A stretch of DNA of 1,513 nt from Escherichia coli (GTDB lineage: Bacteria > Pseudomonadota > Gammaproteobacteria > Enterobacterales > Enterobacteriaceae). The stretch lies in assembly GCF_003334335.1 (NCBI RefSeq), contig NZ_QOWQ01000104.1; one strand, given 5' to 3'. Position 1 is the stretch's first letter, and the number at the start of each line of letters is the position of its first letter. A model generated the notes under the pieces. That model made no database searches. It saw nothing but the letters and a program-made list of their open reading frames with translations, and had not been told where the DNA came from. This document shows positions 1-1,513 of the stretch, piece after piece. Position numbers and translations under genes: made by a program.

Positions 1-65
1 AGTTATCGTGAGAGTAATTCATCGGCACGTTAAATCATATCAGGCGTAATACCACAACCCTTAAG

Positions 66-392
66 TTAGCGCTTATGGGCATACACCCCGACTCTCCTGG
101 CTGTTGCTGACTGCCAGTGCCAGCGTCCTTCAAAACAGGCTCCGTCCCCCTGGCTGCAGAATCCGCTGAACCAGATGCACGGCTCTTCCATAAACCTGCC
201 GTTGCTGAGCCGGATAACACGCTGGCGGAGGTCAATCCCGAAAATGCCACAGACCTCCCTGAAGTCCCCATACGCGTTTTCATACCAGTTGCTGTCAGCA
301 TGATGCTGACGGTACCAGTCGCGGGCTTTTTCCTGTGCGGTGGAGGATAGCTCATTCAGTGTATACACGGTGGTGGTGATAATTCTGCTCAT
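66..392 (-). CDS. Hypothetical protein, 108 aa, unrecognised family; sits where a CbeA-type antitoxin is usually found
   Basis: ORF with ATG at 390-392 and TAA stop at 66-68, co-directional with and 18 nt downstream of the yeeT-like gene, with a plausible SD. The translation looks like a globular protein (W/Y/F-rich, mixed charge, four Cys at residues 48, 72, 79, 86 with C-x6-C-x6-C spacing). It lacks the GARLVQEGN..LHYLADRAG..GSCGYVY features I recall for CbeA/YeeU/YfjZ antitoxins. The alternative overlapping frame (35..355) translates to low-complexity S/G/T/A-rich sequence, so this frame is preferred. Confidence 0.6.
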   Translation of the reverse strand: MSRIITTTVYTLNELSSTAQEKARDWYRQHHADSNWYENAYGDFREVCGIFGIDLRQRVIRLSNGRFMEEPCIWFSGFCSQGDGACFEGRWHWQSATARRVGVYAHKR

Positions 393-399
393 CAGAGTG

Positions 400-404
400 C
401 CCTT
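400..404 (-). promoter_or_regulatory. Weak Shine-Dalgarno (AAGGG) for the 108-aa ORF
   Basis: Minus-strand sequence TGAGTCAGTAAGGGCACTCTGATG: AAGGG followed by a 7-nt spacer before the ATG at 390-392; the yeeT-like stop is 18 nt upstream of that ATG. Confidence 0.4.
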
Positions 405-410
405 ACTGAC

Positions 411-632
411 TCAGTTCAGAGTGACGTTCATCAGCCGGACATACGGGCCAAAACTGTCCTTACGGCGTTCAGCAAACACGGCCAGCACACCGGGAATATC
501 CTGCACTTCACGACCGGTATACGCCTCAGCACTGCCGTGCCAGCGGTATTTGCCGGTACAGAAAGGAAAAAGACGGGATGCCGGATGTTGTTGGTGAATA
601 CGCATGGCTTCACCACGGGTGATGATTTTCAT
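411..632 (-). CDS. yeeT: YeeT/YkfH family protein (DUF987), 73 aa
   Basis: 73-aa ORF (MKIITRGEAMRIHQQHPASRLFPFCTGKYRWHGSAEAYTGREVQDIPGVLAVFAERRKDSFGPYVRLMNVTLN) with TGA stop at 411-413 and a good SD. Its length and position immediately downstream of the radC-like gene match the yeeS-yeeT / ykfG-ykfH arrangement in E. coli cryptic prophages. Confidence 0.85.
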   Translation of the reverse strand: MKIITRGEAMRIHQQHPASRLFPFCTGKYRWHGSAEAYTGREVQDIPGVLAVFAERRKDSFGPYVRLMNVTLN

Positions 633-640
633 AGTGTGAT

Positions 641-646
641 ACCTCT
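641..646 (-). promoter_or_regulatory. Shine-Dalgarno (AGAGGT) for the yeeT-like gene
   Basis: Minus-strand sequence CAGAGGTATCACACTATG: GAGGT followed by an 8-nt spacer before the ATG at 630-632. Confidence 0.5.
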
Positions 647-694
647 GAAGACAGAAGATAAAAGTGCAAACAAGCGTGATGTGGTTGTGACGGG

Positions 695-1171
695 TTAAAG
701 CAGACCATGTTCGGCAAAGGAGAAAACCTGGTTGCCACCGACTATCAGATGGTCCGGCACCCGGATATCCACCAGGCCCAGTGCCTGTACCAGACGTTCC
801 GTGATAAGGCGGTCTGCCTTGCTGGGTGTGACTTCACCGGACGGGTGATTGTGCGCCAGCACCACGGCAGCGGCATTGTGGTACAGGGCGCGTTTAATCA
901 CTTCCCGGGGATGGACTTCCGTGCGGTTGATGGTGCCGGTGAAGAGGGTTTCACCGGCAATCAGTTGATTCTGGTTATTCAGATACAGCACCCGGAATTC
1001 TTCACGCTCCAGTCCCGCCATGTTCAGAATCAGCCATTCCCGTGCCGCACGGGTGGAGGTGAAGGCCACGCCGGGTTCATGAAGATGGCGGTCCAGAGTT
1101 TTCAGGGCCCGCAGAATGAGACTGCGCTCGCCGGGCGTCATCTCTCCGGGCAGAAAGGAAAGTTGTTGCAT
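695..1171 (-). CDS. yeeS: RadC-like JAB/JAMM domain protein (DUF2466; YeeS/YkfG/YfjY family), 158 aa from the SD-supported start; alternative start at 1186 gives 163 aa
   Basis: Continuous minus-strand ORF with TAA stop at 695-697. Translation contains the JAMM signature HNHPSGEVTPSKAD (H-x-H-x7-S-x2-D) with an upstream Glu (NRTEVHPRE). It is short and lacks the N-terminal helix-hairpin-helix region of chromosomal RadC, as is typical of the prophage paralogues. K-12 paralogues are annotated at different in-frame Met starts, so the 5' end is uncertain; the exact paralogue cannot be assigned from sequence alone. Confidence 0.9.
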   Translation of the reverse strand: MQQLSFLPGEMTPGERSLILRALKTLDRHLHEPGVAFTSTRAAREWLILNMAGLEREEFRVLYLNNQNQLIAGETLFTGTINRTEVHPREVIKRALYHNAAAVVLAHNHPSGEVTPSKADRLITERLVQALGLVDIRVPDHLIVGGNQVFSFAEHGLL

Positions 1172-1178
1172 TGTGCTT

Positions 1179-1184
1179 CTCTCC
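1179..1184 (-). promoter_or_regulatory. Shine-Dalgarno-like GGAGAG upstream of the second in-frame ATG of the radC-like gene
   Basis: Minus-strand sequence reads ATGGAGAGAAGCACAATG. GGAG lies 9 nt upstream of the ATG at 1169-1171, whereas the first ATG at 1184-1186 has no purine-rich motif upstream (TATGCGCATCATCGACTGA). Confidence 0.45.
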
Positions 1185-1186
1185 AT

Positions 1187-1513
1187 TCAGTCGATGATGC
1201 GCATAATGGCGCTGCATTCCGGATGCTGCAGGGCGTAATCCCGCAACCGGTAATAATGGACCGTCATGGCATAACACTCCGTACGACAGGCATGATGACT
1301 GTACGTCATCAGACAGGCAGCAATGCCGGCAGCTTCCGGACTCATTTCAGCGCGGTTACCGTTCATGGCATTGAACAGTACCCATGTTTCGTCATCATCG
1401 TCATCCGGTTCGGGTGCCATAAATGCCCCGCCGTTGTTCAGGGTGTACAGATTCCAGATACCACCGCAGTAGTCTTCACACAGACGGTCCATCCAGCCGA
1501 AGACACGGGGCTC
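1187..1513 (-). CDS. klcA: Antirestriction protein, KlcA/ArdB family (YfjX/YafX-like); partial, 5' end beyond window edge
   Basis: Minus-strand frame is open from the window edge (reads EPRVFGW before the first in-window Met at 1492) to a TGA stop at 1187-1189. The translation (LCEDYCGGIWNLYTLNNGGAFMAPEPDDDDDETWVLFNAMNGNRAEMSPEAAGIAACLMTYSHHACR) matches my recollection of KlcA/ArdB-type antirestriction proteins found next to radC-like genes in E. coli prophage islands. About 108 codons are visible; full-length members are roughly 140-150 aa, so about 35-45 N-terminal residues are probably missing. Confidence 0.8.
   Translation of the reverse strand, partial: EPRVFGWMDRLCEDYCGGIWNLYTLNNGGAFMAPEPDDDDDETWVLFNAMNGNRAEMSPEAAGIAACLMTYSHHACRTECYAMTVHYYRLRDYALQHPECSAIMRIID

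Follow-up and report, generated by a model that had tools for sequence, protein, structure and literature searches.

Modules of the kind described here are known from the Escherichia coli K-12 elements CP4-44 (flu-yeeR-yeeS-yeeT-cbeA-cbtA-yeeW), CP4-57 (yfjX-yfjY-ypjJ-yfjZ-ypjF) and CP4-6 (yafX-ykfG-ykfH-yafW-ykfI), the latter two running in the order ArdB, RadC/JAB, DUF987, antitoxin and toxin. The CP4-57 genes yfjXY-ypjJ-yfjZF have been treated as the lfgABCDE operon, in which lfgA::kan is polar on lfgB and an MqsA-bound promoter site lies upstream of lfgA (PMC10846083), and one putative transcription unit has also been described for paralogous copies (PMC5371832). Bernabeu et al. reported a six-gene linkage group of antirestriction, 'DNA repair' RadC and conserved hypothetical genes, found in 4-6 copies in most strains and assigned to one putative transcriptional unit (PMC6480617). 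The products of its relatives have activities of their own: an indirect block of type I restriction in vivo has been shown for ArdB homologues of CFT073, CP4-6 and CP4-57, and CbtA, YkfI and YpjF are toxins that interact with FtsZ, each being neutralised by its antitoxin. We analysed 1,513 nt of the E. coli contig NZ_QOWQ01000104.1 (the whole stretch is called the window here), which is very probably an internal piece of the right-arm module conserved in CP4-type islands, here from an island at serW, likely transcribed as one mRNA and with its fourth gene cut by an insertion sequence (IS). The block as such is already known: it is an ordinary E. coli island module, with earlier descriptions from K-12 and from pathogenicity islands.

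The K-12 paralogous modules share the gene order of the window at 64-99% protein identity. CP4-44 resembles it in a RadC-like protein 99% identical to YeeS (82% to YkfG and 78% to YfjY of the other two elements), in a DUF987 protein 97% identical to YeeT (64% to YkfH and YpjJ), in the 62-nt yeeS-yeeT spacer, in Ag43 and a GTPase upstream, and in CbeA and CbtA downstream, which are 91% and 88% identical to the YeeU and CbtA of the window's island; unlike that island, CP4-44 has yeeR fused upstream of yeeS, no ardB, no gene for a protein of 227 amino acids (aa) between yeeT and cbeA, and no integrase, the latter having been lost (PMC5371832). CP4-6 has its toxin end next to the tRNA and its integrase at the distal end, which is also the layout of the island studied here, but the CP4-57 and CP4-6 proteins are 64-82% identical, their RadC-DUF987 gap measures 8 nt, the 227-aa gene is missing and the elements are inserted at ssrA and thrW, not serW. 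ArdB of the window is 70% identical to YfjX/LfgA and 68% to YafX.

The window matches NZ_CP024232.1 at 99.9% identity, with a single mismatch at window position 794, and positions 77-1513 are 100% identical in alleles free of the IS, including the comparison locus of strain ECONIH1. The island spans about 52 kb at the tRNA-Ser(GGA) gene serW, between infA and clpA, and at its far end lies a tyrosine integrase containing the domains Arm-DNA-bind_3, Phage_int_M and Phage_integrase (PF13356, PF22022, PF00589). From that end the minus-strand order is GTPase, Ag43/Cah, a hypothetical gene, IrmA (frameshifted), DUF905, DUF932, ArdB, RadC, DUF987, the 227-aa gene with an IS421 element, YeeU antitoxin, CbtA toxin, DUF5983, DUF957, DUF4942 and the tRNA. 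Several features that mark CP4-type modules are found in it: a tRNA gene as the insertion site, together with an Arm-DNA-bind_3 integrase; a YeeP/YkfA-type GTPase, DUF932 and, as in CP4-44-like islands, Ag43 upstream on the same strand; and the collinear order antirestriction, RadC/JAB, DUF987, YeeU and CbtA, with the 227-aa gene as one extra member ahead of the antitoxin. The CbtA/YeeU pair adjoining the block (positions 17505-18349 of the IS-bearing locus, L001) is of the CbtA/CbeA type IV toxin-antitoxin kind. An earlier interpretation made from the letters of the window alone (the sequence-only reading) had likened the architecture to P4-like elements and named an integrase, a tRNA attachment site, Ag43 or a YeeP-like GTPase, and a toxin gene as the things to look for in the flanks; all of them occur both in NZ_CP024232.1 and in the IS-free ECONIH1 allele, and the order and sequences agree with the CP4-44, CP4-6 and CP4-57 modules. 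At the far boundary of the island, just beyond the integrase, two direct repeats of the tRNA-Ser 3' end (CCCCCCTCACCGCCA, 14 and 15 nt; L003 27985-27998 and 28161-28175) are probably remnants of attachment sites; ARAGORN found no tRNA there. These repeats lie in or near a stretch that RefSeq labels 'RtT sRNA'.

Gene content of the window

A six-frame listing of open reading frames (ORFs) and direct reading place four frames on the minus strand, the three annotated in Table 1 and a fourth at 66-392, separated by gaps of 15, 62 and 18 nt when the RefSeq start at 1171 is taken for the second gene. Three of them are real genes and not chance ORFs, their products matching the Pfam families PF03230, PF04002 and PF06174. 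The coordinates and spacing given by the sequence-only reading were right, and so was its view that the window holds only the middle of a module: the window is an internal slice of a longer one, and ardB, open at the right edge, runs beyond it. Its "four-gene cassette", by contrast, holds for three known genes, while ORF 66-392 is an IS-cut fragment and the unit is longer than the slice displayed.

Table 1. Features of the window (positions on the 1,513-nt stretch; a dot marks features without strand)
Feature	Position	Strand	Remarks
IS186/IS421 (IS4-family) end, terminal 76 bp	1-76	-	transposase ATG at 22, reading toward 1
22-bp IS terminal inverted repeat ATAAGCGCTAACTTAAGGGTTG (minus strand)	55-76	.	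both IS ends start with the same 22 bases
12-bp target-site duplication GGGCATACACCC, one copy	77-88	.	other copy at L001 18728-18739; single in the IS-free allele L002
5' fragment (codons 1-105) of the 227-aa gene, pseudogene	77-392	-	identity to WP_000086768.1, then IS
AAGGG, Shine-Dalgarno-like	400-404	-	7 nt 5' of ATG 392; anti-Shine-Dalgarno duplex -4.9 kcal/mol
DUF987 gene, 73 aa, YeeT orthologue	411-632	-	PF06174, E = 6e-40, model 1-65 of 65
RadC-DUF987 intergenic spacer, 62 nt, with Shine-Dalgarno GAGG 642-645	633-694	-	unstructured
RadC-like JAB/JAMM metalloprotease gene, 158 aa, YeeS orthologue, LfgB/YfjY paralogue	695-1171	-	PF04002, E = 9e-45
ArdB/KlcA-family gene, 3' two-thirds (108/161 codons and stop)	1187-1513	-	PF03230, E = 3e-37

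The first gene, whose full length is annotated by RefSeq at L001 21187-21672, belongs to the ArdB/KlcA family by profile and by solved structure: it matches PDB entry 2WJ9 (E = 2.5e-98, about 98% identity over the core, residues 25-161) and the KlcA structure 2KMG (E = 8e-21). The 2WJ9 protein is the ArdB of pathogenicity island II of CFT073, which relieves restriction in vivo, acting against each of the four type I families (PMC2836571); its folded core is near-identical to that of the window allele, but the N-terminal ~25 residues differ. Alleviation of type I restriction in vivo has been shown for close homologues of this kind, which makes the window allele a candidate for the same activity. 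The second gene is a RadC-like JAB gene (PF04002) by its profile match and by an intact metal site H-x-H-x(7)-S-x(2)-D (HNHPSGEVTPSKAD, residues 107-120); its product matches PDB 2QLC (6e-26) and scores above the cutoff of TIGR00608, the sole NCBIfam match among the window proteins. Its CP4-57 paralogue LfgB degrades the antitoxin MqsA according to one report (PMC10846083). The third gene matches the DUF987 profile over its full length, and a search of its protein against PDB returned chance matches only.

Shine-Dalgarno (SD)-like sites stand 7-9 nt ahead of all three starts that lie in the window. GGAGAG at 1179-1184 forms an anti-SD duplex of -6.4 kcal/mol ahead of the RadC-like start 1171, and GAGG at 642-645 one of -7.1 kcal/mol ahead of the DUF987 start. 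Since the ardB start lies 159 nt outside the window, SD sites can be checked in three genes only, and the earlier statement that each gene has its own SD stands for those three. The alternative RadC-like start ATG 1186 was rejected: it has no SD (+0.4 kcal/mol), it overlaps the SD of 1171, and RefSeq uses 1171. A fifth minus-strand start in the window is the ATG of the IS transposase at position 22.

The RadC-DUF987 gap exists in two forms, 62 nt in the window and in CP4-44 of K-12 (yeeS-yeeT, L004 12756-12817) versus 8 nt in the CP4-6 and CP4-57 copies (L005 12870-12877, L006 3249-3256). The 62-nt spacer is poorer in GC than the genes (45% vs 54-58%) and folds no better than its shuffles (z = 0.61), and the extra sequence of the yeeS-yeeT lineage showed neither structure nor a promoter match.

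The IS186/IS421 insertion in the fourth gene

The sequence-only reading missed that positions 1-76 of the window are IS DNA. Comparison of the IS-bearing locus L001 with the IS-free allele L002 shows an insert of 1337 bp, 99.85% identical to IS186A of K-12, and RefSeq annotates an IS421-family transposase at L001 18910-20022, corresponding to window position 22 and leftward. In IS-free alleles the match to the window begins only at position 77, as seen in hundreds of genomes at 100% identity, and the uninterrupted 227-aa gene is found at L002 19633-20316 (minus strand). IS186 prefers targets of the form G4-N6-C4. The pre-insertion target GGGGCATACACCCC is such a site, and the target of IS186A in K-12, GGGGATCACTCCCC, has the same G4-N6-C4 shape. 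The element is identified as IS186/IS421 by its near-identity to the reference, by its terminal inverted repeats and by the duplication of a G/C-clamped target. It differs in nothing notable from IS186A of K-12; only its insertion site is uncommon.

The consequence for the fourth frame is direct. ORF 66-392 encodes 105 residues of WP_000086768.1, followed by HKR and a stop within the IS inverted repeat (TAA at 66-68, context CATAAGCGC TAA). RefSeq calls both halves of the interrupted gene a pseudogene, and the half in the window is without the C-terminus. ORF 66-392 is to be named an IS-disrupted pseudogene and not a gene of 108 aa. The exact junction was found in 6/5426 complete E. coli genomes, its carriers including O6:H16 strain 2014EL-1346-6, TW10598 and B2C, with three O6:H16-related human isolates among them; its rarity makes it a potential lineage marker. 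The 227-aa allele of the window is itself a stop-loss form, longer by 13 residues at the C-terminus.

Extent of the transcription unit and competing explanations

A consensus scan for hexamer pairs found no σ-70-like promoter on either strand of the window, and a consensus scan for hairpins found no terminator-like hairpin on its minus strand, in line with the earlier claim that no convincing internal promoter or terminator is present; the sole terminator-like hairpin in the window is weak, at chance level and on the plus strand. An Rfam search of both strands (E <= 1) returned only two chance-level eukaryotic matches and no RNA element. Outside the window, strong minus-strand terminator-like hairpins occur at L001 22660-22631 (13 pairs) and 16778-16752 (10 pairs), each followed by a T-run, and a scan of 8.3 kb around the window found no comparable terminator between the two. 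These hairpins bracket the genes from DUF932 to DUF957, which suggests a transcription unit of about 6 kb with 9-10 genes, not four.

The explanation that we prefer, and hold very probable as stated at the outset, is one in which the full module reads, on the minus strand, DUF932, ArdB, RadC/JAB, DUF987, the 227-aa gene, YeeU/CbeA, CbtA, DUF5983 and DUF957. One long mRNA would start from a promoter upstream of ardB or of DUF932 and continue through the toxin-antitoxin genes, each cistron presumably being translated from its own SD site. ArdB would block type I restriction, the RadC-like JAMM protein would act as a metalloprotease in the manner of LfgB of CP4-57, and the downstream CbtA/CbeA type IV pair, whose activity was shown in K-12, would provide addiction. 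In the strain of the window an IS186/IS421 element has jumped into the G4-N6-C4 site of the fourth gene and truncated it after codon 105, and it would separate the toxin-antitoxin pair from the genes upstream of it by 1.3 kb of IS sequence. The insertion probably weakens or rewires the expression of that pair; since the IS transposase lies on the same strand, read-through is possible.

Several points weigh against this explanation. We infer co-transcription at this locus from the scans and from the literature on paralogues, and the promoter and terminator scans were simple consensus scans that would miss weak or non-σ-70 promoters. Evidence for an operon was obtained on the CP4-57 paralogue, whose proteins are only 64-78% identical and whose 8-nt RadC-DUF987 gap corresponds to one of 62 nt in the window. 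The putative protease role of the RadC-like protein goes back to a single study, and the RadC domain has instead been proposed to be nucleic-acid-processing (PMC5512222). YeeT, YpjJ and YkfH were negative as antirepressors of the dicB promoter (dicBp) in one study (PMC10448788). PADLOC assigned the four proteins to 0 families, its library being one of defence systems and not of anti-defence.

Among the alternatives, the one that survives best holds that the block is an establishment or anti-defence module derived from integrative and conjugative or integrative and mobilizable elements, not from a P4-like prophage, and would be expressed on entry into a new host. We consider it possible but doubtful; it overlaps the preferred explanation and differs from it mainly in ancestry. 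Consistent with such an origin, ArdB/KlcA are classic antirestriction genes of conjugative plasmids (PMC2836571; PMC11541004), the annotation of the island contains no phage structural genes, and relatives of the fourth gene about 60% identical occur in alphaproteobacterial conjugative elements. One such copy, in Tistrella mobilis (L007 1-16645), is 59% identical and stands beside genes for ParB_N, DUF736, DUF2958, a NikA-like protein, a relaxase, a type IV secretion system (T4SS) coupling protein and ParA. The annotation of the island, however, shows no relaxase, T4SS or oriT, its integrase has the domain layout of the P4 type, and at the DNA level plasmids hardly ever carry the block, with matches in 18/72,556 PLSDB records, several of them megabase-sized. 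The same near-absence led us to reject an origin in the leading region of plasmids.

An independent-transcription view, in which the genes are merely adjacent, internal promoters in the 62-nt spacer or in upstream coding sequence drive them separately, and the block is a linkage group and no operon, appears unlikely to us. The spacer is indeed richer in AT than the genes and specific to the yeeS-yeeT lineage, and in K-12 the toxin-antitoxin transcripts are present at low levels and show no autoregulation (PMC5371832), so that their promoter is undefined. Separate transcription is opposed by the scans of the window, negative for promoters on either strand and for terminators on the minus strand, by the remaining gaps of 15 and 18 nt, which have barely room for an SD, and by the polarity of the lfgA insertion on lfgB in the CP4-57 copy. 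That the block is instead a decaying and inert remnant of a defunct mobile element, with the IS as a step of erosion and no selective function left, is improbable, for although the fourth gene is disrupted, island neighbours are frameshifted or truncated (IrmA, TOTE and enterotoxin fragments) among several IS elements and CP4-44 of K-12 has lost its integrase, the three other frames are intact and 97-99% identical to their K-12 orthologues with the JAMM motif kept, homologues have demonstrated activities (PMC2836571; PMC10846083), the IS junction is rare, and the block is kept in most complete genomes, as a rule more than once in each.

The 214-aa family and the distribution of the module

The fourth gene, in its uninterrupted form, belongs to a family of 2723 homologues, typically 214 aa long, whose alphaproteobacterial members are about 60% identical to it. 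The family is labelled '214-aa / DUF8835' and carries the NCBI name 'antitoxin of toxin-antitoxin stability system', a name for which we found no experimental basis. It matches phrog_5162, of unknown function. Searches with the 227-aa protein returned nothing from Pfam, even at E <= 10, and nothing from the PDB sequences, and a structural model of the family with a predicted local distance difference test (pLDDT) score of 79 had no meaningful structural neighbour.

Klebsiella michiganensis has an otherwise collinear island in which the 214-aa gene separates the gene of the CbeA antitoxin from that of the CbtA toxin (L008/L009 7610-8996), and in some E. coli alleles an in-frame fusion joins the 214-aa protein to YeeU by an 'LPEDFIV' linker, giving proteins of 342-343 aa. 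The position in Klebsiella and the YeeU fusions hint at a link of the family with the toxin-antitoxin pair. No CbtA/CbeA pair was found near the 214-aa gene in the Tistrella mobilis locus, so that the copy in this conjugative element shows the family not to be confined to toxin-antitoxin contexts. Its members might modulate CbtA/CbeA-type toxin-antitoxin systems or supply a hitherto unrecognised third component to them, or might be anti-defence proteins of a new kind, a proposal that we consider speculative and rather unlikely; if it were true, the IS186 allele of the window would be a natural knock-out of the 214-aa gene.

Elsewhere in the same island, L001 32690-41309 holds the type I genes hsdM, hsdS and hsdR, with a DarT/DarG pair between hsdS and hsdR, and an M48 peptidase gene and fragments of a TOTE conflict system follow further along. 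With an hsd system and an antirestriction gene in one island, defence and anti-defence cargo lie side by side.

Matches to the window were found in 5096/5426 complete E. coli genomes, at a median of 4 places per genome, and a copy covering at least 80% of the window in 1925 genomes. The block is among the most repeated accessory modules of E. coli, and what is gained here is its confident annotation, the recognition of a pseudogene in the fourth position and a potential lineage marker.

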